Below are positions 5,163 through 46,073 of a stretch of DNA of 64,000 bases, in pieces. Location of the stretch: NCBI GenBank assembly GCA_964617285.1, contig CAZTXJ010000001.1, forward strand, positions 15,237 through 79,236, in the 5' to 3' direction. Position 1 is the stretch's first letter. Every line of letters starts with the position of its first letter. Position numbers and translations under genes: made by a program. The notes under the pieces are model-generated. The model saw only the letters and a list, made by a program, of their open reading frames with translations, had not been told where the DNA came from and did no database searches. This DNA is from an uncultured Calditrichaceae bacterium. Lineage in GTDB: Bacteria; Calditrichota; Calditrichia; RBG-13-44-9.

Positions 5163-5519
5163 ATTTTAGTCCTTCTATTCATACACCTTTATCTCCTTAT
5201 AAATATCCTTATTCCAAATTTATTCTATTTTAATTAACCTGTAATTTGAGTTGGCTCCAAAAGATTAGCTTTTATCTATTGTTTTTAATACTGCATTTTT
5301 TTATTTTAGCCCGGCATCATTAGGATTTTGACTATTTTAAATTAGTTCCAATTTTATTTCTCTTTAAATTTGAAAAATTTGGAGAGAAATTAGAAATATA
5401 GTTATAAAAGAAATTGTCCCGATGAGTCTTTACAATTTAAATTTTTTTAAAATATTACCACTACTTATGTGTGAATATGTTATTAATAAAAATCATAGTT
5501 TATAGATGGTATTTATGAT

Positions 5520-6261: not shown

Positions 6262-7899
<1,638 letters not shown>

Positions 7900-7911
7900 A
7901 AAGCGAACATT

Positions 7912-26913: not shown

Positions 26914-26947
26914 AGTATTTTCTCAGACTTAATTTATCAAATTATAA

Positions 26948-29324: not shown

Positions 29325-30800
29325 TTAACGAGTAATTCGGCGAATTAATTCTCCCTTTTGGTTGTAAATTTCCGCATACAGCGGCATTTCCCCCGGGAGT
29401 GCGTGTGTGGCACAGGCATGACAGGGATCGTAAGCCCGGAAGGCCATTTCCACCTTATTTAAAATGCCATCGTCCACATGACCATCGCGAATTAAACTGC
29501 GCGCTGCTTTATCCACAGACATGGCGATTCTGCCTGCATTATTCTGGGTGGCTACAATTAGATTCGCTTTCTGGATCACACCACGCTCATCGGTTTGATA
29601 GTGATGGAATAGCGTTCCTCTGGGGGCTTCCACACAACCAATTCCTTCTTTTGGGGTCATATCGGGAATAGCGCGAATATGCTTGCTGGTGATTTCGGAA
29701 TCGCTGGCGAGCTCAAGCATTCTTTCGGCAGCGTAAAGCATCTCGACCAGGCGAGCCCAGTGGTTTGCCAGGGTAAAATGGACTGGTTTTCCACCCAGGG
29801 TCTCAAAATAGCGCTTATAATATTCTTCTGCCTGCGGGGTAGCCATGCCCTCGGCGGCATTCAAACGGGCCAGCGGGGCAACACTATATATCCCGGAACC
29901 ATTTCCATCGTTAAATCCGTCCCAGCCAACATTTTTAAGGTAGGGGAATTTTACGTAGCTCCATGGTTCCACATGTTCCAGGATTTGATTTAAATACTCC
30001 TGGGCCGGAAATTTGACAAATTCCTCCCCATTGGGAGCAACTACCCGGATCTTTCCATCATAAAAATTGACCTGATTTTGTTCGTCGACCAATCCCATAT
30101 AATAGGTATGATGGGTATAGGCATCGGAGGTGATCAGATTGAGATATGTGGAATTTGCCAGAACAACGTCATCGAATATCTTAAGGGCAAATAAGGCAAA
30201 ATTAATACCTTCCTTGGCCACGGCTTCGAAACGCTGCCGGACTTCTTCTTTCATTTGTTTGGAAACTCCTCCCGGTAAACCCAGAACCGGATGAATAACC
30301 TTTCCGCCCATCTCGGTGATTAATTCCCTTAACTCCCGGCGCATACCAATCACTTTTTTCCCGACATCCAATCCTACTTTTTGCAGTACGCCTAAAATAT
30401 TGCGATCCGCTTTCGGAGCATCCGGCCCGGTCACAAAATCCGGACCGCCCAGGAAGAAGAAATGCAGGGCATGGTCCTCCAGCATAAAGGTGTTGTAGAC
30501 CAGCTCACGGATTTTTTTCGCGGTCTCTGTCGGTTCCACTTTGTATAAATCATCCAGGGCCTTTGTCCCGGCCATATGATGGGCAGTGGGGCATACCCCG
30601 CAAATTCGTGAAGTGATCTGGGGCATATCCTCTGCCGGACGCCCTTCGCAGAATTTTTCGAATCCCCGCAGTTCCGGGACCTGGAAATAGGCCCGCTCCA
30701 CATTACCGGTGTCATCCAGAAAAATGGATATCTTACCGTGTCCTTCGAGTCTGGTGATTGGATCAATTACAATTTTTTGTGCCATCAGGATTACTCCCAA
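29325..30800 (-). CDS. mvhA: [NiFe] hydrogenase large subunit, group 3 (Mvh/F420-non-reducing type)
   Basis: N-terminal RLEGHG and RICGVCPTAH motifs. C-terminal DPCHACATH, followed by a roughly 25-aa cleavable extension. Confidence 0.85.
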   Translation of the reverse strand: MGVILMAQKIVIDPITRLEGHGKISIFLDDTGNVERAYFQVPELRGFEKFCEGRPAEDMPQITSRICGVCPTAHHMAGTKALDDLYKVEPTETAKKIRELVYNTFMLEDHALHFFFLGGPDFVTGPDAPKADRNILGVLQKVGLDVGKKVIGMRRELRELITEMGGKVIHPVLGLPGGVSKQMKEEVRQRFEAVAKEGINFALFALKIFDDVVLANSTYLNLITSDAYTHHTYYMGLVDEQNQVNFYDGKIRVVAPNGEEFVKFPAQEYLNQILEHVEPWSYVKFPYLKNVGWDGFNDGNGSGIYSVAPLARLNAAEGMATPQAEEYYKRYFETLGGKPVHFTLANHWARLVEMLYAAERMLELASDSEITSKHIRAIPDMTPKEGIGCVEAPRGTLFHHYQTDERGVIQKANLIVATQNNAGRIAMSVDKAARSLIRDGHVDDGILNKVEMAFRAYDPCHACATHALPGEMPLYAEIYNQKGELIRRITR

Positions 30801-30862
30801 TATATCGGTTTTTCATTATTTTTAATGTTAGTTAAAATTTCTCCTGTATCTGTCTTGAACTA

Positions 30863-31858
30863 TTAATCTTTGCTGGATTCCTGAACCGGATTTTGATGAA
30901 AGGTTTTTCGCTTCAAAAGTGAAGCAGGTAACCCGTAACGGTAAAAAGTGCCAACCGGATCGACAAATTTATCAAAAAGTCGCTGAATTGATTCTTCATC
31001 GCTGTAATCCACAATGGAGGCCAGGCCGGAAAGTGCTTTGGCACCCTGATCTTTAACCCGGCTGGTAGGGCCAAAACAACCGGTACAGGGCATATTCCCG
31101 TTAACACACAAAGCTCCGCATCCGCTCCGGGTGGCCGGTCCCATACAAAAAATGCCCTGCGCCAGAAGGCATTTTTCCGGATCGATTTCCACTTCCTGGA
31201 CGCGCTTGAGATCTTTGATCAACAACTTTTCCGGTTTGCTCTGATTCCTATCGCATTCGTCACACAGCGCTTTATCCGGAGACAGCACGGTACCCTTTGG
31301 TGGCAGTTCACCCTTTAAAATGGTTTGAATGGCTTCCAGTAACAACTTCGGGGTAGGTGGGCATCCCGGGAGATAATAGTCTACCTCGACCAGATCATGC
31401 AGATGTTTTACTGTATCAAAAAATTCCGGGAGATGCAAATCATGTCCGTTCATCGATGCATCTTCCAGCGGCACCACCTGATTATTTTCCTGCAGGGAAG
31501 GGACCTCATGGTAGACGCGGTTGAAAATACTTTCTTTGTTCCACAGATTACCCAGCCCCGGTATGCCGCCAAGATGTGCGCAGCTACCAAAAGCAATGAT
31601 CATCTTGGATTTGCGTTCCAGAAGGTAAACCATTTCCTCCTGTTCACCCAGACGGATGGCCCCATTTATGAAAGCGACATCAATTTCTTTATCCTGCATT
31701 TTAGCCACATCTTCTTTTTTGAAATCGAGGGCGACCGGCCAGAAAACAATATCGACTGCTTCAACCACATCCAGAATGTTTTCGGCGAGATCGACCACCG
31801 CTTCCTCACAACCACCGCAACTGGCGCACCAATAAAAAGCAACTTTGGGTTTTGACAT
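30863..31858 (-). CDS. mvhG: [NiFe] hydrogenase small subunit, group 3 (MvhG-like)
   Basis: N-terminal FYWCASCGGCEE proximal-cluster motif. Additional Cys clusters at the C-terminus. Confidence 0.8.
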   Translation of the reverse strand: MSKPKVAFYWCASCGGCEEAVVDLAENILDVVEAVDIVFWPVALDFKKEDVAKMQDKEIDVAFINGAIRLGEQEEMVYLLERKSKMIIAFGSCAHLGGIPGLGNLWNKESIFNRVYHEVPSLQENNQVVPLEDASMNGHDLHLPEFFDTVKHLHDLVEVDYYLPGCPPTPKLLLEAIQTILKGELPPKGTVLSPDKALCDECDRNQSKPEKLLIKDLKRVQEVEIDPEKCLLAQGIFCMGPATRSGCGALCVNGNMPCTGCFGPTSRVKDQGAKALSGLASIVDYSDEESIQRLFDKFVDPVGTFYRYGLPASLLKRKTFHQNPVQESSKD

Positions 31859-31933
31859 TTCGACTTACCTCAATTTATAATTGTCATCCGGTAATCATAT
31901 TTGGTTCACTTACGTAAAACATATGCTCTTTAG

Positions 31934-32395
31934 TTATAAGACAGGTGCTGCTACTGCCTCTGCCTCGCTTTCTACTTCTTCAGTAACCGGAGATGCAGAA
32001 ATTTTTAAAGGACCCAACTCTCTTAATTGATCGACCATTTCGTTGATTACCCGTTGAACTTTATCACCTTCGGAAGCGGAAATCCATTCCAGGCGAAGAC
32101 GCTTTTTTTCGATCCCCATCTGTTCAAGAAGTCTTTGAAGCAGATGAAATCTTCGCAAAGTCTTATAATTACCTTCCTGATAATGGCAATCCCCGGGATG
32201 GCAACCACCGATCAATACGCCATCGGCTCCCCGGTGGAAAGCATCCAGGATAAACTGGGGATCAATTCTGCCAGAGCACATGATCCGAACAATGCGCACA
32301 TTGGGAGCGTAACTCATCCGAGCAGTACCCGCCAGGTCTGCTGCGGTGTAAGTGCACCAGGTGCAGAAAAATGCAACTACTTTTGGTTCGTACAT
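31934..32395 (-). CDS. mvhD: MvhD-like hydrogenase delta subunit (2Fe-2S)
   Basis: KVVAFFCTWCTYTAADLAG...MCSGR...GCHPGDCHY, the MvhD/FlpD Cys pattern. Confidence 0.8.
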   Translation of the reverse strand: MYEPKVVAFFCTWCTYTAADLAGTARMSYAPNVRIVRIMCSGRIDPQFILDAFHRGADGVLIGGCHPGDCHYQEGNYKTLRRFHLLQRLLEQMGIEKKRLRLEWISASEGDKVQRVINEMVDQLRELGPLKISASPVTEEVESEAEAVAAPVL

Positions 32396-32466
32396 GGATC
32401 TTTATCCTTTTTGTAATTGAACTGTCTGTCATTCTTAAATTTATTCATTCAACCTAACTATTCCAG

Positions 32467-35400
32467 CTAAACCATAAGTCCTTCTATTTCGGAGAATATC
32501 TGTTCGTCCAGATAGAGATGCTGGCGTGCAGCGCCACTCGGACAGGCGGAGACACAAGTGCCGCATCCCTTGCAAAGTACCTCGTTAATAACCGATATGG
32601 CCTTCTCCTTGTCGAAGCTGATGGCAGTGTAAGGACAGAGAGAGACGCAGGTTTGACAACCGGAACAGTACTCTTCTTCGATCCAGGCGGTATTTGGTTC
32701 CAGCTCCACCTCGCCGCGATCGATAAGAGCAAGGGCTTCCGCGGCGGCGGCACCGGCCTGGGCTACGGTATCCGGAATGTCTTTTGGCGATTGGCAAGCA
32801 CCGGCCAGGAAAATTCCGTCTGTGGCAGTAGAAATCGGTGCTAATTTGGGATGTCTCTCCAGGAAAAATCCCTCATTACTGCAGGAGATATTGAAGATTC
32901 TCCGGATTTCATCCGCATCGGGTTGTGGTTCCAGACCGGTTGAAAGGATAACCATATCCACTGGTATTCGTCTTACCATACCAATCAGTGTATCCTCAAC
33001 CCGAATCACCAGTTTGCCCTCCTCGGAAGGATCCAGGGGTACGTCACTGACTTCGGCAACCCGTCCCCGGATCATGTGCGCCCCTTCTTCCAGTATCCGA
33101 TCATAGAACTCTTCATATCCTTTACCAAAGGTTCGCATATCAATATAGAAGTTATAGACCTCGGCATTTGTTCGCTCGTGCATCAGATGGGCAAATTTAA
33201 GTGAGTACATACAGCAAACCCGGGAGCAGTACCGGTTATGATTTTTGTCGCGCGATCCCACACAATGAATTATTCCCACTGACTTGGGTTTTCCTCCATC
33301 CCGTAAAATAATTTCACCACCGGTGGGTCCGGCAGCATTGATCAGCCTTTCCACTTCCAAGCTGGTGTAGACATTGGCCAGTTTTTTATAACCATAATGC
33401 GGGATTTTTTCGGCATCGAAAGATTTAAATCCAGTGGCGATGATTATGGAGCCGACATCGATCTCTTTTATCTCATCCTTTTGGTGATAATCGATAGCCT
33501 TTGCTTCGCAGGTATTAACACATAACTCACAGTCGCAGCAACCGGCGCAGGCCAGACAACGATTGGCTTCTTCGATGGCCATCTCTTCCGTGTAGCCCTG
33601 GTGTACCTCGTCGAAGGACTTCCTTCTCTCAATCTCAATGGCCGGAATTTCAACCCGCCATTTTACCGGAATACCCTCGGTATCAAATTCAAAACTTGGT
33701 TCGAAAGGACCTTCCAGTTCCCGACCCTCGCTCATATCCTCACTTTTGAGATAACGATCAATAGAGATGGCAGCTTTCCGACCGGCAAACATGGCATTGA
33801 CCACTACATCAGGACCCGATACACAATCTCCTCCGGCAAAGATGCCTTCGATATTTGTTTCCAGAGTGACCGGGTCGGCTGCAAATGTATCCCATTGTGT
33901 TACAGTCAGGCCCAGCCGGTCCTTAAGTGTCTCCAGTTCCGGCATCTGACCGATGGTGACGATGACTGCGTCGCAAGGCAGGATGAACTCGGATCCCGGG
34001 ACAGGTACCGGTCGTCGGCGACCACTTTCGTCCGGATGGCCTAATCGGGTGCGAATGCATTCCAGTCCCGCTACATGTGTTGAGCCCATAAACTGACGGG
34101 GCATGGCATTGAAATAAATGCGGATACCTTCTTTTTCTGCTTCCCGGATTTCCAGTTCGTCAGCCGGCATTTCATTTCTGCCCCGGCGGTAAACAATGGT
34201 AACCTCTTCCGCATCTGTGCGCAGGGCGGTCCTTGCCGCATCGATGGCCGAATTACCACCGCCAATGACCAGAACCTTTTTGCCCAGTTTCACTTTCTCA
34301 CCACTGTTCACTCGCTTGAGAAAATCAATTCCACCCCAGATTCCATTCAGGATTTCATTGGGAATATTTAAGCTCCGCTCCTTACCACAGCCAATGGCCA
34401 GGTATACTGCCTGATATTTTTCTTTGAGCTGTTTTAAGGAAATGTCTCGTCCAATCTTGGTATTTAATTTTATGTTTACACCGGTTTCCTCAATACGACT
34501 GATTTCTTCATTCAGGATGTGACGGGGTAACCGGAATGCGGGAATACCCATCCATAACATTCCACCCGGCATCTGATTCGCTTCATATATCTGTACCTGA
34601 TAACCCCGATGTCGTAATTCGTAAGCACACATTAATCCTGAAGGACCGGATCCAACAATCGCCACCTTTTCTTTTCTCTGAATCGCCGGATCTGGTTTTG
34701 GCAAGCTGAATTGGCCAACATGGTCTGTGACAAAGCGTTTAAGTGCCGGAACATTAATGGCGTCATCAACCTTATTTCGCGAGCACATAGACATACACGG
34801 ATGCGAGCACACCCGGCCACAAATTGCCGGAAGGGGATTATCCCGGAGAATAACCTCCAGTGCCTCTTCAAACCGGCCCCCGGCGATCAATTTAATATAT
34901 GCCTGTGCATTCTGATGTAAGCTGCAGGTTGCCTGGCAGGGTGGCATCCCTTTACGGGAAATGGTATAGGTGTTCGGTACCGATTGAGGAAATGGCCGGT
35001 AAATGGCTTTGCGGGTTCCCAGGCCTTCGTCAAATTCGGAGGGTATATCCACCGGACAGACCTTCACACATTCACCACAGCCGGTGCATGCTTCTTCGTT
35101 TATAAATCTAGCTTTCTTTTTAACTTTCACCTTAAAGTTGCCAACATAACCATCCACGCCTTCCACTTCAGAATAAGTCATGAGTTCTATATTTGGATGT
35201 GCGGCTACTTGGGTCATTTTTGGGGTCAGGATACAAGCCGAGCAATCCAGGGTGGGAAAAGTTTTATCGAATTTTGCCATATGGCCACCGATGGATGGCT
35301 CCCGTTCGATCAGATAAACCTTTTTCCCGGCATCTGCCATCGTAAGAGCGGCTTGTATTCCAGCGATTCCTCCACCAATGACCATGGTATCCGGATGCAC

Positions 35401-35841
35401 CGGCACTGATCGTTTCTTAAGGGGCTCGTGAAAGTATACCCGCTTAACGCCTGCTGAAATCAGGGCTTTTGCTTTATCGGTCGCCTGGACTTTATCCAGG
35501 GTTACCCAGGACACATGTTCCCGGATATTTGCCATCTGGAAGAAATAGGGATTTTCACCACCTTCCCGGACAGCCCTGCGGAAGGTCACTTCATGCATCA
35601 GGGGCGAACAGGATGCAACCAGCACCCGGTTCACACCTAATTCTTTAATATCCTTTTTGATTAAATCCTGGCCGGGATCGGAACACATAAATTTATACTC
35701 CCGGGCAATTTCGACATGGGGAAGTGTCTGGGCGAATTCCACCACTTCGGATATATCAACCTTGCCAGCGATGTTTGCTCCACAGTGACAAATGTAGACG
35801 CCAATTTTGATATCACCATTGTTGTTCATTTTAGTCTCCAT
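32467..35841 (-). CDS. hdrA: HdrA-like heterodisulfide reductase flavoprotein with an inserted complete GltD/NfnB-like NAD(P)H-FAD module (1124 aa)
   Basis: HdrA N-terminal Cys domain. First Rossmann fold VIGGGIAGIQAAL, inserted ferredoxin CTGCGECVKVCP, HdrA core (CVGSRD, CSRVCC) and C-terminal 2x4Fe-4S. Between these, at about 33740-34950, lies a GltD-like module: CGRVCSHPC...C Fe-S, VAIVGSGPSGLMCAYEL FAD, VLVIGGGNSAIDAA NAD(P)H and GGDCVSGPD. Confidence 0.75.
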   Translation of the reverse strand: METKMNNNGDIKIGVYICHCGANIAGKVDISEVVEFAQTLPHVEIAREYKFMCSDPGQDLIKKDIKELGVNRVLVASCSPLMHEVTFRRAVREGGENPYFFQMANIREHVSWVTLDKVQATDKAKALISAGVKRVYFHEPLKKRSVPVHPDTMVIGGGIAGIQAALTMADAGKKVYLIEREPSIGGHMAKFDKTFPTLDCSACILTPKMTQVAAHPNIELMTYSEVEGVDGYVGNFKVKVKKKARFINEEACTGCGECVKVCPVDIPSEFDEGLGTRKAIYRPFPQSVPNTYTISRKGMPPCQATCSLHQNAQAYIKLIAGGRFEEALEVILRDNPLPAICGRVCSHPCMSMCSRNKVDDAINVPALKRFVTDHVGQFSLPKPDPAIQRKEKVAIVGSGPSGLMCAYELRHRGYQVQIYEANQMPGGMLWMGIPAFRLPRHILNEEISRIEETGVNIKLNTKIGRDISLKQLKEKYQAVYLAIGCGKERSLNIPNEILNGIWGGIDFLKRVNSGEKVKLGKKVLVIGGGNSAIDAARTALRTDAEEVTIVYRRGRNEMPADELEIREAEKEGIRIYFNAMPRQFMGSTHVAGLECIRTRLGHPDESGRRRPVPVPGSEFILPCDAVIVTIGQMPELETLKDRLGLTVTQWDTFAADPVTLETNIEGIFAGGDCVSGPDVVVNAMFAGRKAAISIDRYLKSEDMSEGRELEGPFEPSFEFDTEGIPVKWRVEIPAIEIERRKSFDEVHQGYTEEMAIEEANRCLACAGCCDCELCVNTCEAKAIDYHQKDEIKEIDVGSIIIATGFKSFDAEKIPHYGYKKLANVYTSLEVERLINAAGPTGGEIILRDGGKPKSVGIIHCVGSRDKNHNRYCSRVCCMYSLKFAHLMHERTNAEVYNFYIDMRTFGKGYEEFYDRILEEGAHMIRGRVAEVSDVPLDPSEEGKLVIRVEDTLIGMVRRIPVDMVILSTGLEPQPDADEIRRIFNISCSNEGFFLERHPKLAPISTATDGIFLAGACQSPKDIPDTVAQAGAAAAEALALIDRGEVELEPNTAWIEEEYCSGCQTCVSLCPYTAISFDKEKAISVINEVLCKGCGTCVSACPSGAARQHLYLDEQIFSEIEGLMV

Positions 35842-35868
35842 GAAAGTTTTTCATAGAACGTTCCCAGT

Positions 35869-36762
35869 TTAAATATTTGTCTGTATTTCCGGGACTTCGA
35901 TGCTCTTCATCAGATCCTTTGGGAAAATGATGGATCTTTTTATTCCCAGTTTCTTTGCCGGAATTCCAAAGGCAAGACCGAGAATTTGTGTGAAATAAAG
36001 AATAGGTATTTCTTTAATGTCGTTATATTTCTTCAAAATTTTCCGCTGATAAGCTTCCAGATTAAACTGACAGAGTGGACATACTGTAACGATGCAGTTG
36101 GCCCCGCGGCGTTGTGCTTCGGAGAGTAAAATATAATTTATCCGTAATCCGACCTCCTCGATGGTACCGGTTAAGGATCCACCGCAACACCTGGTTTTCA
36201 CCGGATAATCCACCGCTTCGGCGCCAAGATATTCGAAGATCTGGTCCATGGTGTCCGGAAAACAGGGATGGTCAAATTCCTGGTAAGGTCGGACGATTTG
36301 GCATCCGTAGTATGGTGCAATTTTAAATGATCTCAATGGTATCCGAACCCGGTTTTGGATTTTTTCAAATCCTACGTCATGCAGCAGCACTTCCAGCGGA
36401 TGACGTACCCGGACTGTACCGCGGTAAACCAGATCGGCTGCGGTAAGAGCTTTATCCACCTTTTCCCGGATTTCCGGATATTGCTTTATATACTTCATGG
36501 TTTTTAACAAAACCAGGTAACAGGCACTACAGGGTGCAACCAGATCGAAACCCATTTCTTCAGCGATAGCTAAATTTCTCGCAGAAACCGCAAAGGACAT
36601 ATTTTCATCGACAGACATATACATCGTCGCACCACAACAATTCCAGTCGGGCAATTCCAGTAATTTCAGGTCCAGGGCCTCAAAAACCGCCAGCAAAGAT
36701 TCTTCGTATTGTTTTGCCGTTCCCTTAACAGAACATCCCGGATAATATGAGTAGGTTTTCAT
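35869..36762 (-). CDS. hdrB: Heterodisulfide reductase subunit B-like (two CCG domains)
   Basis: CCGATMYM and CCGGSL motifs with flanking Cys, the duplicated Cx..CCG..CxxC pattern. Confidence 0.8.
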   Translation of the reverse strand: MKTYSYYPGCSVKGTAKQYEESLLAVFEALDLKLLELPDWNCCGATMYMSVDENMSFAVSARNLAIAEEMGFDLVAPCSACYLVLLKTMKYIKQYPEIREKVDKALTAADLVYRGTVRVRHPLEVLLHDVGFEKIQNRVRIPLRSFKIAPYYGCQIVRPYQEFDHPCFPDTMDQIFEYLGAEAVDYPVKTRCCGGSLTGTIEEVGLRINYILLSEAQRRGANCIVTVCPLCQFNLEAYQRKILKKYNDIKEIPILYFTQILGLAFGIPAKKLGIKRSIIFPKDLMKSIEVPEIQTNI

Positions 36763-36764
36763 GA

Positions 36765-37337
36765 TCAGGCCTCCAGTGCTTTGAATATTTTCCGGATTTG
36801 CTTAAGGTTTTTAATTTTTTCAGTACCGAAGCGCATTCGCCCGGTTCTCAGCAGGTTTGCTCCCAATGGTATCATGGCAATCAGACTGGAAAGCCGTGTT
36901 TTCATGGCAAGTTTTACCACAAGCCAGCTTTCGGTAATCCGCCCGTTTTTCCGGATGGTATTGGTGAAGAGGCGGGCTAAAATGGGGATGCTAAATTTTT
37001 TACTGGGATATATTCCCTCCTCGATCGCCCGTCTTTTAAAGGCATACATCACATCAGTAATTTTAATATTTCTGGGGCAACTCACCAGACAGGCATAACA
37101 GGAGGAACATAGCCAGATTGTGAAACTGCTTAGAACCTCTTCCTTAAATCCGGCATCAGCCATAGCGATCAGTCGTCGGGGAGTATTATCCATGTAAATA
37201 CTCATGGGACAAATACTGCTGCAGGTTCCACACTGAATGCACTCCCGGATATTTTCTCCACCGGGAACACTCGAGATCCATTGTGGAAAAGAATGATCGA
37301 GCTCATTCTCGTATTTTACTTTTCTTTGAACTTCCAT
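36765..37337 (-). CDS. hdrC: Heterodisulfide reductase subunit C-like (2x4Fe-4S)
   Basis: CIQCGTCSSICP and CSSCYACLVSCP. The start is taken at MEVQRKV, which has a GGAGGG ribosome-binding site; the tracked ORF extends to 37367 without one. Confidence 0.75.
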   Translation of the reverse strand: MEVQRKVKYENELDHSFPQWISSVPGGENIRECIQCGTCSSICPMSIYMDNTPRRLIAMADAGFKEEVLSSFTIWLCSSCYACLVSCPRNIKITDVMYAFKRRAIEEGIYPSKKFSIPILARLFTNTIRKNGRITESWLVVKLAMKTRLSSLIAMIPLGANLLRTGRMRFGTEKIKNLKQIRKIFKALEA

Positions 37338-37383
37338 TGAAAACCCTCCAATGGGTATTTTGGTCATTTATTGATTCTAATAA

Positions 37384-37700: not shown

Positions 37701-39365
37701 ATGCGTATCAGAGCTAAATCACACATTGGTGCCTTTACAAGATCATTAAGTTTTAAACTCCTCCTGATCCTGTTAACAATCATGTTTTTATTTTTCGCCT
37801 TCTATGTAGTTCTTTATTCAACTATGCAAAAGCGAATCTATGAGCATACAATTGAATTGGGAGCTTATCGGAACAGTGATATTATTAAGAATGCCCTCTA
37901 TCGACTGATGCTCAAAAATGAACGGGAGGAGCTTTTTAATACCATAAAGATTATTGGTAATGAACCCGGTCTTGAAGATATTCGGATTTACAATAAAAAG
38001 GGAGAGATTACTTACTCGACAAATGAATCCGAAACCGGAACAGTGGTAGACATGAGAGCCGAAGCCTGCTATGCCTGTCATGCAGCTAATGAACCTATAC
38101 AATCACTGCAGACCGAGGATAAAACCAGAATATATGAAGGGCCCAAGGGTTATCGGATTATGGGAATGATAAATCCCATCAGAAATGCGCCTGAATGCAG
38201 TAATCAGGTCTGCCATGCTCATAATCCCGAACAGACAATTTTGGGTGTTCTTGATGTCAGGATGTCACTCAACGAACTGGATCAGGCGGTTTTCCAGACT
38301 AGGGTTGCAGCAATTTCTCTCTCCTTTGGCCTGACAATTTTAGCCCTGGTCTTATTTTCCATCATGGTATATATCATCATTTATCGACCGATAAAAACGC
38401 TTCAGGCCGGTACAGTCAGGCTAGCGGTTGGTGATCTCGATTATCGAATTGACATGAAGCGCAGGGATGAGTTAGGAATGCTGGCTCAGTCATTTAATAA
38501 TATGGCAGAGAATCTGAAAAAGGCATATCAGGAATTAAAAGACTGGTCCAACAAACTGGAAAAACGAGTGGATGAAAAAACCGATCAATTGGAGAAGATG
38601 CATAAGGGGCTAATTCATGTGGAGAAGATGGCCTCACTCGGTAAAATGGCCGCTTCCGTAGCCCACGAGTTGAATAATCCCCTGGCTGGTATCGTTACTT
38701 ATTCGAAATTAATTCAGAAAAGAATCCGGAAAAACGGGACCTCACCAGAAGATCTAAAGAAAATTATCAATGAGTTGGAACTGATCAGTTCGGAATCCAT
38801 GCGTTGCGGAAATATCGTCCGGAATCTTCTTGCCTTCGCCCGGGAAACCTCGGCAAACTTCCAGGAATTTAATATTGAAGAGATCATAAATCGTGGATTG
38901 GAAATCCTGAGTCATCATATGCAATTGGCGGGGGTGGAATTTGAAAAAAACATACGGGTAACATCCAAGAAATTGTTTTGCGATGCCGAACAAATGGTGC
39001 AGGCGCTGATTGCTTTATTCGTTAATGCAGTGGAAGCCATGCCGGATGGAGGAACTTTAAATATCACTGTGGAAGACATCCCGGAGAAACCTTCCTGGAT
39101 GAGAATAAAGATTGCCGATACTGGTATAGGAATTTCAGCGGAAACCCTGGACAAGATTTTCGAACCATTTTTTACCACCAAGGAGGAAAAGAAGGGCGTT
39201 GGTCTGGGTTTGCCGGTGGTCTATGGCATTATTCAGCGACACCAGGGCAAAATTCGGGTGGAATCTGAAAAAGGTAAAGGCAGTACCTTTATCATTGAAT
39301 TACCCCGGCAGCAAACCGGGTTAGTGGAAGAAAGAGAAAGGGGTGATGAAGATGAAACCGTATAA
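37701..39365 (+). CDS. Sensor histidine kinase with periplasmic domain carrying c-type haem motifs, HAMP, HisKA and HATPase
   Basis: TM1, a roughly 165-aa periplasmic region containing CYACH (CxxCH) and CSNQVCH (Cx4CH), TM2, HAMP, then H-box AHELNNPL and N/G boxes. Confidence 0.8.
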
Positions 39366-40692
39366 AATCTTAATCGTGGATGATGAGTTATCGGTGCGAA
39401 CTTCCCTGAAGGAATGGTTTCTTGAGGAAGGATTTACTGTGGAAACTGCAGAAAGCGGGGAAGATGCTCTGAATAAGATGCATACCGGTCCCTACGATTT
39501 AATCCTGCTGGATATTAAGATGCCTGGTATGGATGGCATCACCCTGCAAAAGAAGATCAAGGAAATTGATGAGGATGCCATCATCATTATCATGACCGCT
39601 TATGCCTCGGTGGATACCGCGGTTGAAGCACTTAAATTGGGTGCTTTCGATTATGTGACCAAGCCATTCGATCCCGATGACCTCTCCCAGCTCATCAGAA
39701 ATGCACTGAAACAAAAAGAATTGACTTCAGAGAATGTTCAGTTAAAGGAGAAAATTTCCGAACTATCCGGAGTGGACGATATTATTGGCCAGAGTGAAGA
39801 AATGAAACGAGTTTTTGAGATGGTTGATACTGTGGCGGAAACGGATTCTACCGTCCTGATCCGGGGTGAAAGTGGAACCGGAAAGGAACTTATCGCCAGG
39901 GCAATTCATAGCCGGAGTAAGCGAAGGTATTTTCCGATTGTGGCAGTGAATTGTGGGGCCATACCGGAAACATTATTGGAGAGCGAACTTTTTGGTCACG
40001 AGAAAGGGGCTTTTACCGGCGCCCAATACCGGCGCAAGGGAAAACTGGAACTGGCAAATGGCGGGACACTCTTCCTGGATGAAATCGGGGATATTTCATT
40101 CAAAATGCAGATAGATTTATTGCGCGTCCTCGAGGGCAAAAGATTTACCCGATTAGGTGGATCGGATGAAATCCAAGTTGATTTTCGGCTTATTTGTGCT
40201 ACCAATAAGAATTTGGAAAAATTAGTGGAGGAAGAAAAATTCCGGGAGGATCTATACTACCGGATTAATGTATTTTCTATTTTTCTGCCACCGTTAAGAA
40301 AAAGAAAAAGCGATATCATTATGCTGGCCAACCACTTTATCCAGAAATATGCAAGATCTATGGGTAAGCCGAAGAAGTCGATAGCTTCTAATGTGCAGGA
40401 AATGATGCTGGAATACTCCTGGCCGGGAAATGTGCGAGAACTGGAAAATGCCATTGAGCGAGCTATGGTCATTGGTAAGGGACCGGAAATTACCATTGAA
40501 GATCTGCCCCTTCATATAAACACAACTGAAAAATCGAATTCCGGTAAGGTGAAGCTATCCGATCTGGAGAAAGATCATATTCTGCGCATATTGGAAGAGA
40601 CCGGTGGAAATGTGACCAAAGCGGCCAATCTTTTGGGTATTGATCGGGTGACTTTATATAACAAAATGAAAAAATACGGTGTCAAGCGTTAA
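39343..40692 (+). CDS. Sigma-54-dependent response regulator (NtrC family)
   Basis: REC, AAA+ (GESGTGKE, GAFTGA) and Fis HTH. Start may be at [12 protein letters not shown]. Overlaps the kinase stop. Confidence 0.9.
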   Translation: MMKMKPYKILIVDDELSVRTSLKEWFLEEGFTVETAESGEDALNKMHTGPYDLILLDIKMPGMDGITLQKKIKEIDEDAIIIIMTAYASVDTAVEALKLGAFDYVTKPFDPDDLSQLIRNALKQKELTSENVQLKEKISELSGVDDIIGQSEEMKRVFEMVDTVAETDSTVLIRGESGTGKELIARAIHSRSKRRYFPIVAVNCGAIPETLLESELFGHEKGAFTGAQYRRKGKLELANGGTLFLDEIGDISFKMQIDLLRVLEGKRFTRLGGSDEIQVDFRLICATNKNLEKLVEEEKFREDLYYRINVFSIFLPPLRKRKSDIIMLANHFIQKYARSMGKPKKSIASNVQEMMLEYSWPGNVRELENAIERAMVIGKGPEITIEDLPLHINTTEKSNSGKVKLSDLEKDHILRILEETGGNVTKAANLLGIDRVTLYNKMKKYGVKR

Positions 40693-41235
40693 GTGAATGA
40701 AAAAATATATATTGCATTTATCAATGGTCATTTCCCGCCCTTCTGGAAAAATCTGACCGCCGATCTGCGTCGATGCCTGCCTTATCCCTTCGAACATTTT
40801 GTTGTCAATGTGGACTTAAAGCTATTCTATTCGATGGATCGTAATCAGTATCATTCTACTCTCTTGCTTGCCCAACTTCTGAAATTCTTGCCTGAGGATG
40901 GAGAAAAGATCGTGGGTGTGACTGATGTCGATATCTTTATTCCGATTTTGACTTTTCTGTTTGGTGAGGCCCAGTTGGCTGGTAAAGGCGCCCTGGTTTC
41001 AACCTATCGCCTGAACAACCACTTCTATGGCCTGCCGAAAGATGATGAACTGCTTTACCAGCGGGCGATGAAGGAAATTCTGCATGAACTGGGTCACACT
41101 TTTGGCCTCATCCACTGCCCGGATTATGAATGTGTGATGAATTCTTCGACCTATGTGGAAAATATTGATCTGAAAAGAAATCGATTTTGTCTTGGCTGCC
41201 AGAAAAAATTAGGCGTCACTTGCCGTGAAGGGTGA
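40693..41235 (+). CDS. amzA: Archaemetzincin (peptidase family M54)
   Basis: HELGHTFGLIHCPDYECVMNSS-x16-CLGCQ is the full archaemetzincin signature. The gene starts the nucleotide after the regulator stop. Confidence 0.75.
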   Translation: MNEKIYIAFINGHFPPFWKNLTADLRRCLPYPFEHFVVNVDLKLFYSMDRNQYHSTLLLAQLLKFLPEDGEKIVGVTDVDIFIPILTFLFGEAQLAGKGALVSTYRLNNHFYGLPKDDELLYQRAMKEILHELGHTFGLIHCPDYECVMNSSTYVENIDLKRNRFCLGCQKKLGVTCREG

Positions 41236-41245
41236 TGCTCAAAAT

Positions 41246-42034
41246 CTAAGTAAAGATTTGCTTCAGCAACCTTTCAAAGTTATCCGTACCGATTATTTTT
41301 TCCAAATCTACCTGAAGATGCCCACCATCCGCCAAAGTTTCGCCAATGTTAGCCGGAATGGATTCTTGCAAGCTATCCCACAGCAGATTTTTTAATAAAT
41401 TCACTTTTTTGATGTAAAACTGCAGTCCGGCCAATTCATTACATTTATTCTGTATTTGCTGACCGATTCCTTTTTTAGACATCTTAAATAAATATTTATC
41501 TTCTTCAATCACATGCTCGAATCCCGTTACGGTAAACTCGGGATTGATTTCTGAAATTTCACCTCCAATGGGTGCATGAAGAGGCAGGGTTTTTCCTTTG
41601 CGGAATATCCATGCCATTAATTGGCCCTTATGAAAGGAATCTCCCTCTTCCGGTAAAATGATCCGGTCCACCGGAGAGATCGTTTTGACTACCAGTTTAT
41701 CCAGACCAATGAGAATAGCATCCTCTGTTTCCTTCTGACACCAGAAATAATTGGATTGATAACAATGGTCCAGATAAAATCTGCATCCGGCAAAAAGTGA
41801 AGAAAAATACTGTTGAATCCAGTTGTTTATCTTTTCATCTTCCCGACTAGCTTCCTTTTTCTGATACTCCGGTTGGGATGGATTCTCTCTGTTCTCATGC
41901 ACCAAAATTCCCTGCATCACTTTATCGAATTCACATGTTTCACATTCAAAATTATGATCGCAGAGTTTATAGTTAACAATTCCGGCAGACATCCAGATAC
42001 ATTTTAAGCTTGCTTTATTTGTATGGGATCTCAT
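41246..42034 (-). CDS. GcvH-like (lipoyl-carrier fold) protein with N-terminal Cys4 cluster, cytoplasmic paralog
   Basis: C-x12-C-x5-C-x2-C at the N-terminus. Central K...HAPIGGEISEINPEF region like the GcvH lipoyl hairpin. The C-terminal extension contains a LADGG motif shared with two paralogs. Confidence 0.45.
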   Translation of the reverse strand: MRSHTNKASLKCIWMSAGIVNYKLCDHNFECETCEFDKVMQGILVHENRENPSQPEYQKKEASREDEKINNWIQQYFSSLFAGCRFYLDHCYQSNYFWCQKETEDAILIGLDKLVVKTISPVDRIILPEEGDSFHKGQLMAWIFRKGKTLPLHAPIGGEISEINPEFTVTGFEHVIEEDKYLFKMSKKGIGQQIQNKCNELAGLQFYIKKVNLLKNLLWDSLQESIPANIGETLADGGHLQVDLEKIIGTDNFERLLKQIFT

Positions 42035-42132
42035 TTTTTCACCATTTTGCTTATTGATTCGTTATGCTCGATTCAGTTCCATGGATCCTTTTGTCTTATT
42101 CCTGACTGGCCACAAAAATGTGTGGCCAGTGT

Positions 42133-42825
42133 TTATTTGGTTAACAAAAAATCTGTAGCAATATCTTCCCAATTATCGGGTGATATTTCCCGGGCAAATC
42201 CGGAAACCGGAATACCACCATCCTGCATCACCAAACCCAGTTGGGGTGATATTTTTTCTCGCAGTTTCAAAATAACATTCTCTAACCAGGCCACTGCCAC
42301 CGGGCCGGATAATAAATTGGTCAGATTCGGTTTTAAATTGTCCACTTCTACTTCCATTAGCCAGCCCCGTTCGTACGGATCCTTGGTTATTAGATCTGTT
42401 GACTGTAATGCTTCCTGATTGATTTTAAGGACCTTGCCCGAAACAGGGGAGAGCATATCGATTTTTTTATCATCAAATTTTAGTTTCCATCCCTTATTTC
42501 CCTGTTCCAGAATCGTTCCTCTATCCGGTAACACAATTGCCGATGGCTTCCCTAGTAATTTTTGGGCAAAGTCGTCAATTCCGATGCGGACAACGTTCCG
42601 ATTCTGTGGCAAAACCCAACTATGCCCCTGATGATAATATCTTCCTTTCATTAAATGGAACCAATCGTGACTGGTAACCGGCTGCCGTGCGAGTTTGCTT
42701 GCTTGAGCATTGGTTGACCGGTTCATCCAAACCCAGTATGCAACAAAGAGTATCAGAAATCCAATAACCAGGATATATTCGATGCCTTTAGTGGCAAACA
42801 TATCTATATAACCGAAATTTTCCAT
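42133..42825 (-). CDS. Membrane-anchored GcvH-like (glycine cleavage H-protein-like) protein
   Basis: N-terminal TM. SPVSGKVLKINQEALQSTDLITKDPYERGWLMEVEV closely parallels E. coli GcvH [36 protein letters not shown]. C-terminal MQDGG extension. Start set at MENFGY (ribosome-binding site AGAGGA) rather than the longer tracked ORF. Confidence 0.5.
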   Translation of the reverse strand: MENFGYIDMFATKGIEYILVIGFLILFVAYWVWMNRSTNAQASKLARQPVTSHDWFHLMKGRYYHQGHSWVLPQNRNVVRIGIDDFAQKLLGKPSAIVLPDRGTILEQGNKGWKLKFDDKKIDMLSPVSGKVLKINQEALQSTDLITKDPYERGWLMEVEVDNLKPNLTNLLSGPVAVAWLENVILKLREKISPQLGLVMQDGGIPVSGFAREISPDNWEDIATDFLLTK

Positions 42826-44105
42826 TCTTCGTTTTCCTCTTCTATTTTTGTGGTTTGCGGTTGTCTTTTGGTTTTTTCTTCGGACCGAGCCCATTCCGGC
42901 GACTCTTTCAGGATCGGCATGCGGTTGACAATCCAGCGGAATACCAGAATTTCGCCAAAAATTATCATTAACGTGACCATAATTTCCATCCAGGTGGGAT
43001 AATATTTAACCGCGGATTGCCAGTTAAAAGCAATCAGTGAGGTATTCAATCTGTTCATCACGATTCCCACCAGGGTAAGAATTGCCGCAATTTTAATGAG
43101 TCCGAAATTTCTCCGGCGGACACTTTCCGTGAATAATATACCGGGAAGCAATACAAAGCCCAGAATCTCGGTAAGAAAGAGGTAACCCAAGGGTGTATTC
43201 AGGTAGGAATAGTGCTGGCCATGAAAGAAAACCAGTATCTTGAGAAACAGATAAACGAACATGGTACCGGCACAGATTTTTGCCAGACTTAATAAAATGC
43301 CATAATGCGCCGCATGATTTTGAGGACTAATCTGATGTCGGAATACTCTTTGACTTATGCTGCCCTCGAATATGACCATTGATAACCCGGCAAAAATACT
43401 GGATACAAAAAACAAGACTGGAATAAATTCGGTGTACCATAAAGGATGAATTTTACTTTTCGCGATCAGAAATAAGGCGCCCAAGGCGGATTGATGAAGT
43501 GTGGATAGGGTGATACCGAAGATAACCACCCCGACGGTAAGGGTACCCAGGATCTTACGGATTCTTTTCCATCCCAGCCACTCAGCCACAGCCGGTGAAA
43601 ATTCAATGAATTCTGCCATCATATACAACATAAAGTGCCAGGCCACCAGAAACATCACCGAACTGACTCCGAATGAATTACCGATAATCGGATTGACAAT
43701 ATTCCAGGGACGCCCCAAATCGAAAACCAGTGCCCCGGCATAAAAAGCATAGGCCAGAAAACCATTTAGCACAGTTACCCGAATAATTGGGTGATATTTC
43801 TTTATTCTCATAATGTAAACCATAAAGCATAGAACGTAAGCACCACCGGCAAATGCTACACCGGTAATAACATCAAAGCTGATCCAGAGTCCCCAGGGAT
43901 ATTCCTGGGATAAATTCGTAACCGAACCCAATCCCTTGGCAAAACGAATAACCAGTATCACGATACCGGTCATAATGATCACAAAGGATAAAATATTGAA
44001 AGGAGTGAGAATCGGTCCTTTGGGTTTTAACTCACTGAGAAAGAATTTAATAAATTTTTTGAATTCCGATTTGACCAATGAAACGGTTCCTGTTTTATTA
44101 TCCAT
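42804..44105 (-). CDS. NrfD/PsrC/HybB family polytopic membrane quinone-interacting subunit
   Basis: About ten TM helices and the YPWGLWISFDVITGVAFAGGAY family motif. Start taken at MDNKTG, where ATGGATAA overlaps the upstream stop. Confidence 0.7.
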   Translation of the reverse strand: MDNKTGTVSLVKSEFKKFIKFFLSELKPKGPILTPFNILSFVIIMTGIVILVIRFAKGLGSVTNLSQEYPWGLWISFDVITGVAFAGGAYVLCFMVYIMRIKKYHPIIRVTVLNGFLAYAFYAGALVFDLGRPWNIVNPIIGNSFGVSSVMFLVAWHFMLYMMAEFIEFSPAVAEWLGWKRIRKILGTLTVGVVIFGITLSTLHQSALGALFLIAKSKIHPLWYTEFIPVLFFVSSIFAGLSMVIFEGSISQRVFRHQISPQNHAAHYGILLSLAKICAGTMFVYLFLKILVFFHGQHYSYLNTPLGYLFLTEILGFVLLPGILFTESVRRRNFGLIKIAAILTLVGIVMNRLNTSLIAFNWQSAVKYYPTWMEIMVTLMIIFGEILVFRWIVNRMPILKESPEWARSEEKTKRQPQTTKIEEENEEWKISVI

Positions 44106-44967
44106 GGAGATCCTCACTTTCTTCTCTCGTTTCATTTTCCTTGGCAGAGTTATGAAGCGCCAGTAAAAATGCCGGCCATAAAGTCAGAATAACAGGTACA
44201 CTATAAAGGAAACCTTTGGTGTATTCTGCGGGTGGTTTTTCTCCAACTGCATTTTTGAAACCAATCTGTTCAAAAGGGACGGCGGAAAGATAAAGCCATC
44301 CGGTACCGCCAACTTCATGTTCGCCGTAAATATGATGAACATAATCATCCGGATTCTGATAAATACGTTGTCTGGCAATTTCCAGAATTTCGCGACGGTC
44401 ACCGAAAATGATTGCTTCGGCCGGACAATTTTCAACGCAAGCTGGGATTTCACCATCCTTCAAACGGGCCCAGCACATGGTACACTTTTGAATTTTTGGC
44501 ATAGGACTATTATACTCGAATTGCGGTATACCAAACGGACAGGCAATCATACAATAGCGACAGCCCATGCATTTGTTCTCCCGCCAGATTACCGGACCCT
44601 CTTTGGTTTTATACATTGCCTTGGTGAGACAGGCTGAGGCGCATGCCGGTTGATTGCAGTGCATACATTGTCTCTTAACAAATACCTCGCCTTTATCTGT
44701 ATCAAACCGGTTAATCACTGAATATTGAGTCAGAGAAGGTTTACGTTCTTTTTCCAAAACCGAATCATCCAGGTCAGGTTCAGGTAAATTATTTTGCATG
44801 GCACAGGCCTCTTCGCAGCTTCGACAGCCCACACAACGCGTTGTATCCACTAAAATAGCTTTAAACTCAGTGGATGCCGGGACGTTTTCTGCTTTCAAAG
44901 GAGAACTTTTTATCAGAGCTGTTCCGGTGGCAACGCCAAATGCCTTCAAAAAGTCACGTCTATCCAT
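44098..44967 (-). CDS. Tat-exported 4x[4Fe-4S] ferredoxin subunit (NrfC/PsrB/HybA-like) with C-terminal TM anchor
   Basis: RRDFLK twin-arginine signal, four Cys cluster motifs and a C-terminal hydrophobic helix. Confidence 0.75.
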   Translation of the reverse strand: MDRRDFLKAFGVATGTALIKSSPLKAENVPASTEFKAILVDTTRCVGCRSCEEACAMQNNLPEPDLDDSVLEKERKPSLTQYSVINRFDTDKGEVFVKRQCMHCNQPACASACLTKAMYKTKEGPVIWRENKCMGCRYCMIACPFGIPQFEYNSPMPKIQKCTMCWARLKDGEIPACVENCPAEAIIFGDRREILEIARQRIYQNPDDYVHHIYGEHEVGGTGWLYLSAVPFEQIGFKNAVGEKPPAEYTKGFLYSVPVILTLWPAFLLALHNSAKENETREESEDLHG

Positions 44968-45029
44968 TTAAAATTCCTTTCTGTTTTCCATAAAAGAGTT
45001 CAGAAAATTAAGAGAGCGGATTTGTCCTC

Positions 45030-45713
45030 TTAATTAAGAAAACTGTGTTCAAATTCCTTCCAAAATTTCTCATCAAATTTGGACATGATTCCGATCGGCA
45101 AATCGCCACCATCTGCCATTGTTGATCCGAGTTCGGTTCGGGGCAGATTTTTCATGAAGAAGCTTTTCACTTCCTCATACCTGGTGTTTATCCAGTTTTT
45201 GGTTTTGTCTGCGATAATCCATCCGGGAATTTCTGAGGATACTTTTTCGGGTTTAATGGCATAAATCCAATTCTGGCTCAATTTGTCCCAGCCGCTGATT
45301 TCCTGAAACTCGGGATTGATGGCGACAATGGAGCCGTGGACCGGAGATTTGAGATCCAGTAATTTTGATCCCTTTCGTACTTTTAATAGTGAACCACCTT
45401 TACCAATTTTCTGACCTTCGGGAACTGTTTCAATCTTATCCGGATTACCAACTAAACCCAATAGCATCGGTTGAATTCCCAACAGAAGGTTGCCATTATC
45501 CAGAATTTTGGACCAGGTGAAACCAGGCTGCAGAAAGACGCCATTTAATATTCCCGGCATTGTTTTGGAAATAAAAAGATTTTCGGGTTCAGCCTGTTCG
45601 ACTGTAGCCCTTTTCCGCCTTCTCTGGATAAGATAGTCGATTGTAATGAAAAGTACGACGCTGAGTACAACAAGTAAGAATACCATATTTATTCCTTTCT
45701 TTTTTTGATTCAA
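45030..45713 (-). CDS. Membrane-anchored GcvH-like protein (paralog 1)
   Basis: N-terminal TM flanked by basic residues. KSPVHGSIVAINPEF...WIYAIKP GcvH-like hairpin and tail. C-terminal MADGG motif. Confidence 0.45.
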   Translation of the reverse strand: MNQKKKGINMVFLLVVLSVVLFITIDYLIQRRRKRATVEQAEPENLFISKTMPGILNGVFLQPGFTWSKILDNGNLLLGIQPMLLGLVGNPDKIETVPEGQKIGKGGSLLKVRKGSKLLDLKSPVHGSIVAINPEFQEISGWDKLSQNWIYAIKPEKVSSEIPGWIIADKTKNWINTRYEEVKSFFMKNLPRTELGSTMADGGDLPIGIMSKFDEKFWKEFEHSFLN

Positions 45714-46073
45714 ATGGTATTGCTGCTGTACGAATTACAAAATAAATGCCAAGGCACATATTACTCGCTTAAAGTTATAATAATAAATGAGTTGGATGGG
45801 ATTGGTAAATTACCAGGGGCAAGACGAAATCGTTGAATATATTTACGGTTTAATTTTAGGATTAGCAGAAAACCGTGTTAAGTATTTAAAAATTAGCAAT
45901 GTAAATAGTGTAAATATTTTCAACGATGAATATTGAAATAATTTACAGTTCAATTTTTAGCTTGTAGAATAATCTAACAGTTTATCCGAATAGAATATCA
46001 GGAATGCTTATTCTTATGGATTTTTAAGGGGGAATAATTGAAGCAGATCTAAATTGACCAGTTTGTATTCAGA

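Follow-up and report, generated by a model that had tools for sequence, protein, structure and literature searches.

Paralogous H-protein-fold proteins lacking a conserved lipoyl-lysine accompany an NrfC-NrfD-type membrane module in an eight-gene unit found across bacterial phyla

The window analyzed here, a 64-kb stretch of DNA from an uncultured member of the Calditrichaceae (all positions given are window coordinates), contains five co-oriented genes on the minus strand, g1 to g5, that span 45686-41246 and encode a membrane redox module of the known NrfC-NrfD kind together with three paralogous proteins that have the fold of the glycine cleavage H-protein (GcvH). We found that these genes are part of an eight-gene unit that occurs across many phyla and that apparently has not been described. 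While the core module is of a familiar type, this does not hold for the accessory subunits and their domain fusions, nor for the eight-gene unit as a whole. The explanation we favor, and to which we would give an even chance, is that the operon encodes a quinone module of the Hmc/Nhc/Hyb type that is regulated via sigma-54 and is equipped with cytoplasmic, non-lipoylated H-protein-fold proteins as regulatory or adaptor subunits.

For the g4 family, the databases contain over 600 relatives that are equally long, and 277 loci in genomes were confirmed, of which the best 80 were used for the locus comparisons. They derive from Calditrichota, Bacteroidota, Ignavibacteria, Chlorobiota, Gemmatimonadota, Myxococcota, Acidobacteriota, Planctomycetota, Krumholzibacteriia and Thermodesulfobacteriota, the latter including Syntrophus, Syntrophorhabdus and Smithellaceae. 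The block was syntenic in these 80 fetched loci and is conserved in at least eight phyla; two of the contigs, L001 (98-100% protein identity to the window) and L002 (92%), are of the same species. Within the 33 loci that had full flanks (at least 4.5 kb upstream and at least 5.5 kb downstream), the genes for the iron-sulfur (Fe-S) protein and the NrfD protein were present in 32, and those for a sensor histidine kinase, a sigma-54 activator and an M54-type peptidase in 30 each. At least two GcvH-like genes were found in 31 of the 33 loci and three in 18. This co-occurrence of the Fe-S/NrfD genes with those for the kinase, the activator and the peptidase makes the conserved unit one of eight genes and not of five. 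The first-pass annotation of the window had presented the five-gene arrangement as undescribed, and in this it appears to be right, as neither a literature search nor the review of the NrfD family (PMC8076601), which covers no complex with GcvH-like subunits, yielded a description. The same search of the literature returned no account of GcvH-like partners of NrfD proteins, of an archaemetzincin associated with sigma-54 or of GcvH as the output domain of a response regulator. In the databases, the proteins concerned are named 'glycine cleavage system protein H' or 'response regulator'. In an uncultured Cytophagia (L003, 1-9700) a tandem duplication was observed, with two HybA-like/NrfD-like pairs in a row and GcvH-like genes around each.

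The five genes are tightly packed and co-oriented, as initially annotated, and their assignment to a HybA/HybB-type pair and three paralogous GcvH-fold proteins was upheld by Pfam. The first gene, g1 (45686..45030), encodes a protein of 218 amino acids with an N-terminal transmembrane (TM) helix, an H-protein-like domain predicted to be cytoplasmic and non-lipoylated, and a C-terminal extension that contains GSTMADGG. Its start was placed at the ATG at 45686, which is preceded by an AAAGGAA ribosome site and was also called, independently, as the start on contig L001, which is near-identical to the window; the TTG at 45713, where the listed open reading frame (ORF) starts, is probably an over-extension. 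The second gene, g2 (44967..44098), specifies a HmcB/HybA-like 4x[4Fe-4S] protein of 289 amino acids that is predicted to be exported to the periplasm via the twin-arginine translocation (Tat) system and has a C-terminal TM anchor. The stop codon of g2 overlaps with the ATG of g3 (ATGGATAA), and g3 (44105..42804) encodes an NrfD-family membrane subunit of 433 amino acids, of the 10-helix HmcC/HybB type, predicted to handle quinone and protons. The start of g4 (42825..42133; 230 amino acids) in turn overlaps the 3' end of g3 by 22 nucleotides, and its product consists of an HmcD-like TM helix, an H-protein-like domain (again predicted to be cytoplasmic and non-lipoylated) and a C-terminal extension with LGLVMQDGG. 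The last gene, g5 (42034..41246), encodes a soluble protein of 262 amino acids with an N-terminal Cys4 domain (C-x13-C-x5-C-x2-C), an H-protein-like domain and a C-terminal extension with GETLADGG. It was correctly noted before that a molybdopterin or cytochrome subunit is missing: no molybdopterin, cytochrome or other catalytic subunit is encoded in the g1-g5 operon.

Profile searches identified the core pair, with a match of g2 to Fer4_11 (77.6 bits) in addition to a Tat signal, and of g3 to NrfD (PF03916; 59.8 bits), in line with the identities proposed earlier. Within NCBIfam, the best match of g2 was to HmcB (354.6 bits with a cut-off of 420; HybA 228.9 bits) and that of g3 to HmcC (421.8 bits with a cut-off of 550; HybB 272.9 bits). 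Among 61 orthologues of g2 none deviates at any of the 16 cluster cysteines, and 53 of them have an RRxFL-type Tat motif. The sequence identity between g3 and HybB of Escherichia coli is 29%. When g3 and 68 orthologues (69 sequences) were aligned to HybB of E. coli MG1655, whose numbering is used here, R89, Y99, E148 and H184 appeared invariant, and the same was true for D109, Y141, E155, H200, E291 and R329. Replacement of R89, Y99, E148 or H184 in HybB, which correspond to R109, Y119, E168 and H204 of g3, lowers hydrogen oxidation (PMC8076601), and it has been argued that in the 10-helix group formed by QrcD, HybB and HmcC the protons needed to reduce quinone come from the cytoplasm via such a path (PMC6303296). 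Protein g3 thus possesses an NrfD domain with the conserved proton-path and quinone-site residues of this group.

The resemblance to the Hmc and Nhc complexes of sulfate reducers (HmcABCDEF and NhcABCD) extends beyond the best matches of g2 and g3. The Fe-S subunit is Tat-exported and tail-anchored, and the gene order in the hmc operon is B-C-D, with which the order g2-g3-g4 agrees. The TM helix of g4 (FATKGIEYILVIGFL...) gave a weak match to the 38-residue NCBIfam model of HmcD (NF045712; 21.4 bits with a cut-off of 34), and three orthologues of g4 scored between 15.9 and 22.3 bits, also under the cut-off; the HmcD-like nature of the helix is therefore suggestive and not proven. There are clear differences as well. 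The operon lacks a gene for the multiheme cytochrome HmcA/NhcA (HmcA has 16 hemes) and genes for HmcE (heme b) and HmcF (HdrD-like), all scores are under the equivalog cut-offs, and g4 combines the HmcD-like helix with an H-protein-like domain, of which there are two further paralogues. With HybA-HybB of E. coli hydrogenase 2 the module shares the 4x[4Fe-4S] protein with a C-terminal anchor and the 10-helix NrfD subunit, in which all mutationally supported proton-path residues of HybB are kept, yet unlike hydrogenase 2 (HybOABC) it has no adjacent genes for HybO, HybC or maturation proteins and it has extra cytoplasmic subunits. Membership of Hmc or hydrogenase 2 proper was ruled out on basis of the cut-offs and the missing subunits.

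The H-protein fold of the three small proteins is genuine. Pfam GCV_H (PF01597), the family to which they had been provisionally attributed, was matched by g4 with 71.8 bits, by g5 with 27.9 bits and by g1 with 23.8 bits, the latter just over the cut-off of 22.2, and the H-protein signatures HxW, G(I/V)(T/D)D-x-AQ and PY-x-GW, which are also found in GcvH and in LbpA of the sHdr system, are kept. In contrast, the scores with the NCBIfam model of gcvH (TIGR00527) were all far under the cut-off of 115.85 (g4 58.4, g5 23.3 and g1 17.8 bits). Comparison by hhalign connected g1 to the g4 family with a probability of 98.5% over 167 columns, including the DGG motif, and g5 to the same family with a probability of 99.4%. 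Since these profile-profile comparisons extend over the H-protein core and the C-terminal extension, g1, g4 and g5 are paralogues, and the shared xDGG extension that was noted at first is real. A relation to the N-terminal barrel-sandwich-hybrid domains of NqrA and RnfC would be one of analogy only, as there is no specific sequence relationship and the complexes are different.

To locate the lipoyl attachment site, gapless alignments of the window proteins were made to E. coli GcvH and, with HMMER, to a solved mycobacterial H-protein, and 162 orthologues (70 of the g4 family, 48 from the g1 position directly upstream of the Fe-S gene and 44 of the g5 family) were aligned, with K65 of E. coli GcvH defining the lipoyl-lysine column. 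The lipoyl-lysine falls opposite D119 of g4, with K120 next to it, and in the structure model of g4 the turn of the hairpin is at D118-D119. All three window proteins thus have a lysine near the hairpin tip, as originally pointed out, only it lies one residue past the canonical position and it is not conserved. In the g4 family the lipoyl-lysine column holds S in 51, G in 8, T in 4 and D in 3 sequences (66 of the 70), and the next column K in 50 and R in 7. At the g1 position the corresponding residues are G (11), K (9), S (8) and E (5), followed by R (25) and K (15), and in the g5 family G (13), D (11) and E (10), followed by G (17), Y (11) and K (4). The shifted lysine is replaced by R, T, N, Q or G within the g4 family, and R dominates at the g1 position. 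In view of this variation, the column is not a site of covalent attachment, and judged from the alignments g1, g4 and g5 cannot be lipoyl carriers. They differ from GcvH and LbpA not only by the absence of a conserved lipoyl-lysine (in these in an E-S-V-K-A context) but also by the N-terminal TM anchor or Cys4 domain and the C-terminal DGG extension.

The genomic context is in keeping with this. The absence of glycine cleavage genes nearby that was reported earlier was confirmed, as gcvP, gcvT and lpd were found neither among the window ORFs scanned nor among the recurrent neighbors in the 80 loci, and the same holds for genes for lipoate ligase, lipoyl synthase and sulfur transfer. The block has no genes for P-, T- or L-proteins, sHdr or lipoate maturation as conserved neighbors, again different from GcvH and LbpA.

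The C-terminal extension comprises around 60 amino acids, and the motif G-x-T-[LM]-[AQ]-D-G-G is common to all three paralogues. It falls in a low-confidence segment of both AlphaFold models and this segment is probably flexible in view of the modeling, while the part of g4 that follows the DGG is conserved and was modeled as helices with a predicted local distance difference test score (pLDDT) of 92-93. In around 18 loci of Desulfobacterota we encountered proteins of 70-90 amino acids that consist of only a TM helix, the sequence LG[LF]T[LM]ADGG and a charged tail, and that end 10-15 charged residues past the GG (L075 2165-2524, L063 about 5400-5640 and L015 about 7620-7900, plus some 15 others). 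They are often encoded at the g1 position, within the module, and look like g1 without the GcvH-like domain. The existence of these minimal proteins speaks for the DGG motif as the key element. Many homologues of g4 carry a precomputed Pfam match, PF28260.1.

The distribution of charges indicates on which side of the membrane the GcvH-like domains reside. The number of Lys and Arg residues flanking the TM helix is 0.9 versus 2.7 in the g4 family and 1.4 versus 3.9 at the g1 position, which by the positive-inside rule predicts an N-out/C-in orientation for both, and the g5 family has no hydrophobic segment. Because of these counts and of the fusions to receiver domains described below, which are cytoplasmic domains, the GcvH-like domains are predicted to be cytoplasmic, and a periplasmic location was rejected on the same grounds. 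The membrane would thus separate them from the periplasmic Fe-S subunit, and a compartment shared with this subunit is not supported. NrfD proteins carry no cofactors (PMC8076601), and given that a heme b subunit is lacking as well, electrons from the periplasmic clusters cannot reach the GcvH-like domains.

In ten of the 80 loci (Ignavibacteria and Bacteroidota), the upstream paralogues are fusions of a receiver domain (REC) and GCV_H that come with their own kinase. The protein at the g1 position then consists of a TM helix, a receiver domain and GCV_H, and the second protein of a receiver domain and GCV_H. In L057, for instance, two such genes (3752-4576 and 4655-5818) immediately precede the HybA-like gene and are accompanied by a gene for an additional histidine kinase; the same was seen in L007, L016, L024, L026, L036, L038, L039, L040 and L048. 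The REC-GCV_H family yielded 890 matches at E <= 1e-20, and both domains were present in all of the top 120. The receivers keep the acidic pocket, the phospho-acceptor Asp, the Thr and the Lys, and in the GCV_H part the lipoyl column is occupied by Asp in 91 of the 120 sequences, with an invariant His three residues later.

A second connection to signaling is provided by the N-terminal domain of g5 (41885-42034). The Cys4 cluster that was recognized there from the start was recovered in all 44 orthologues as C[IV]WM-x-[AT]G-x4-Y[KQR]LC-x5-CE-x-C, and a profile of the domain retrieved around 980 representative clusters, often with two to four tandem copies per protein. No Pfam or NCBIfam model matched the domain, in which a W, an M, a Y and a K are conserved besides the cysteines. 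When ten of the Cys4-domain proteins (among P0149-P0294) were scanned with Pfam, seven appeared fused to GCV_H, while P0250 is a histidine kinase that contains TPRs and P0206 a receiver protein. AlphaFold modeled the Cys4 region of g5 with a pLDDT below 50. With its four similarly spaced cysteines in a small domain that also appears in signaling proteins, it resembles the motif of the WhiB-like Fe-S sensors (C-Xn-C-X2-C-X5-C), which we take as a lead only. In g5 the X2 and X5 spacers come in the opposite order, and the likeness is one of spacing and context.

The three other members of the unit are encoded together on the plus strand (37701-41235), convergent with the g1-g5 operon, and are co-conserved with it. 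The sensor histidine kinase (37701..39365) contains HAMP, HisKA and HATPase_c domains and a periplasmic domain with CxxCH and Cx4CH motifs, each of which is at least 90% conserved in 48 orthologues. No Pfam model covers the periplasmic domain, and the motifs suggest that the kinase may be a heme-based (c-type) periplasmic sensor. The NtrC-type sigma-54 activator (39343..40692) has the Pfam domains REC, AAA+ and HTH_8. The archaemetzincin-type (M54) zinc metallopeptidase (40693..41235) matched Pfam Peptidase_M54 with 86.3 bits and NCBIfam archmetzin with 156.7 bits, above the cut-off of 145. The sequence HELGHxxGLxHC...CVM...CxxC is conserved in 55 sequences, so that both the HExxHxxGxxH and the Cys4 site are kept.

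Upstream of g1 we identified a sigma-54-type promoter-like element (TGGCATttattTTGTA, 45751-45736, minus strand), which reads TGGCAT-N5-TTGTA and has its -12 element 52 nucleotides upstream of the ATG. TGGCAY-N5-TTGC-like elements were found 60-110 nucleotides 5' of the first gene in many loci (Gemmatimonadota, Calditrichia and others), and a weighted score of at least 12 of 13.5 was reached in 16 loci on the gene strand versus 7 on the opposite strand. Three copies of GTAAAT-N3-TTCAA, with a repeat/inverted-repeat structure, are present on the minus strand 85-200 nucleotides upstream of the promoter-like element (45833..45946). These are the only three matches in the 64 kb, versus 0.18 expected from shuffles, and they are candidate binding sites of the sigma-54 activator, arranged as one would expect of such sites. 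Taken together, these elements point to a putative control of the operon by sigma-54. A riboswitch or other known RNA was not found in the 360-nucleotide leader, which gave no Rfam match at E <= 1. Within the operon, a perfect 10-bp stem-loop (42105..42130, minus strand) follows directly after the stop codon of g4, in the 98-nucleotide gap between g4 and g5. It has no U-run on the mRNA strand and may play a role in mRNA processing, stability or partial attenuation.

At 3.9 kb from the block there is a separate operon, hdrCBA-mvhDGA (29325-37367), with mvhDGA of the cytoplasmic type, and the suggestion of a link to Hdr had drawn on this proximity. The distance as such was given correctly, but the only other contigs in which the block borders on hdr genes are L001 and L002, both of the same species, and a weak hdrA match was found in just one of the 33 full-flank loci, so that synteny rules out a conserved Hdr-Mvh link and we treat the proximity as a local coincidence. 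The cluster is hdrCBA-mvhDGA and not shdr. Its HdrA-like protein (32467-35841) is unusually large (1124 amino acids), with two pyridine-nucleotide-disulfide oxidoreductase regions, a Fer4_20 domain (DPD-type) and several ferredoxin domains, and the mvh genes are immediately followed, on their strand, by a second pair of a PAS histidine kinase and a sigma-54 activator (25567-28600). Further away, the region 22183-24230 encodes a di-heme cytochrome c and, after it, a COX1-family heme-copper oxidase or nitric oxide reductase-like subunit, which means that the organism probably also handles oxygen or nitric oxide. With respect to a periplasmic partner, multiheme cytochrome c genes (class III, NapC/NirT-like) flank the module in about 25 of the 80 loci. 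Such a context would suit a module that acts, like Nhc or Qrc, as a cytochrome c:menaquinone oxidoreductase, and by analogy to these the partner is probably a multiheme cytochrome c.

On basis of the above, the favored explanation can be worded as follows. The tail-anchored, Tat-exported g2 would pass electrons to or from a menaquinone site in the 10-helix g3, which would use its cytoplasm-side proton pathway, and the HmcD-like single helix of g4 would be the third piece of the core. This helix and the second anchor helix, that of g1, would each bear a cytoplasmic H-protein-fold domain that has lost the lipoyl-lysine and gained a helical DGG extension, while the soluble third paralogue, g5, would add a metal-binding Cys4 domain. 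The three would act as regulatory or adaptor subunits at the cytoplasmic face of the NrfD subunit and, when signaled to do so, tune or report the activity of the module, such as the uptake of protons with which quinone is reduced. The contacts between the subunits, the regulatory role and the direction of electron flow are what we infer here from the arrangement. A regulatory role is suggested by the REC-GCV_H fusions with their own kinase and by the occurrence of the Cys4 domain in a histidine kinase and a receiver protein, and together the receiver fusions, the Cys4 domain, the DGG motif and the sites of the M54 peptidase argue for protein-protein interaction that takes place at the cytoplasmic face under the control of signals, and not for catalysis or the carriage of a cofactor. 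Several points weigh against this explanation. The binding of the GcvH-like proteins to the NrfD/Fe-S pair is a proposal, and the explanation leaves the role of the co-conserved M54 peptidase unaccounted for. The match to HmcD is under its curated cut-off, and g2 and g3, scoring below the equivalog cut-offs of HmcB and HmcC, are not Hmc proper. The two anchored families show a semi-conserved Lys or Arg one residue past the tip of the hairpin. In the window, the surroundings of the operon contain no gene for a cytochrome or another partner in the periplasm. Finally, the -12 element in the window is imperfect, with GT in place of GC, and many loci are without a clear sigma-54 site, a strict regular expression having found few and the weighted score being uneven.

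Of the alternatives, the one that holds the whole block to be mainly a sensor and not a bioenergetic enzyme, with the Fe-S/NrfD pair reading the redox state of the periplasm or the quinone pool and the GcvH-like, Cys4 and receiver proteins relaying this to the kinase and the sigma-54 activator, deserves the most attention, even if we consider it unlikely. It would explain why the operon encodes no catalytic subunit and why it is so tightly co-conserved with the activator and a kinase with heme motifs (30 of 33 loci), and it agrees with the fusion of GcvH-like domains to receivers and the sharing of the Cys4 domain with kinases. Nevertheless, the 16 cluster cysteines and the proton-path residues of HybB are fully kept, as in a working energy-transducing module, multiheme cytochrome genes flank many loci, and dedicated two-component systems are common in respiratory operons. 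The M54 peptidase, which occurs in 30 of the 33 loci and has its HExxHxxGxxH and Cys4 site intact, gives rise to another possibility, namely that the DGG motif is a site at which this peptidase processes the GcvH-like proteins and the small TM proteins, and that the complex is controlled in its assembly or turnover by the regulation of this cleavage. The location of the motif in a probably flexible segment and the ending of the minimal TM-DGG proteins 10-15 charged residues after the GG are compatible with this, but the evidence is purely correlative, we know of no established cleavage specificity for bacterial archaemetzincins, and the conserved and confidently helical segment that follows the DGG in g4 does not look like a discarded propeptide. 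We therefore regard it as quite improbable.

Two further alternatives take the H-protein fold or the Hdr genes as their point of departure. The cytoplasmic GcvH-like domains might be docking platforms that recruit a soluble oxidoreductase (here, for example, Hdr-Mvh), with the Cys4 cluster of g5 as an electron relay. HdrD-like subunits are present on the cytoplasmic side of the Hmc and Tmc complexes, an Fe-S cluster is a possible ligand of the Cys4 motif, and the hdr-mvh operon is adjacent in this genome. However, cytoplasmic oxidoreductases are absent from the conserved neighbors, the other two paralogues are without redox-motif cysteines, and there is neither a heme b subunit nor a cofactor path across the membrane, NrfD proteins being cofactor-free (PMC8076601), which leaves this alternative with a slightly smaller chance still than DGG processing. 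Least probable by far is the model of the first-pass annotation, in which lipoylated or persulfide-bearing swinging-arm carriers couple the quinone module to Hdr-Mvh, like LbpA does in sHdr sulfur oxidation. It was prompted by the true H-protein fold, the lysine near the hairpin tip and the hdrCBA-mvhDGA operon at 3.9 kb. As set out above, this lysine is one residue off and unconserved, with G, D, E or Y there in the g5 family, the adjacency to hdr is limited to the same species, the genes for lipoate ligase, lipoyl synthase and sulfur transfer are missing among the window ORFs scanned and the recurrent neighbors, and the gcvH scores are far under the cut-off. The lack of a conserved lysine at the hairpin tip in the orthologues goes against precisely the feature on which that model depended, and on the alignment of the 162 orthologues to E. 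coli GcvH, together with the HMMER alignment to solved H-proteins, a function as lipoyl or sulfur carrier was rejected.

NrfC-NrfD modules are among the most wide-spread quinone-coupling units in anaerobic respiration, while to our knowledge the control of their activity after assembly is essentially unknown. The eight-gene unit, which ranges from Calditrichota/Ignavibacteria to Gemmatimonadota, Acidobacteriota and syntrophic Desulfobacterota, equips such a module with two or three proteins of the H-protein fold, which in some lineages are fused to receiver domains. Should these indeed be regulatory subunits, they would represent a new way to gate a respiratory complex, and a fold to which the annotation 'glycine cleavage system protein H' is routinely given would have acquired a new function. 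More tentatively, and with the chances rather against it, the non-lipoylated H-protein-fold 'DGG' domains might constitute an unrecognized class of effector domains that dock on the cytoplasmic face of NrfD and switch its proton-coupled activity, under control of phosphorylation (REC-GcvH), a Cys4 metal or redox sensor and possibly archaemetzincin cleavage at the DGG. If true, this would amount to a signal-gated respiratory complex and to a new family of output domains in two-component signaling. At the least, hundreds of database entries that carry the name of the H-protein are mis-annotated as lipoyl carriers.

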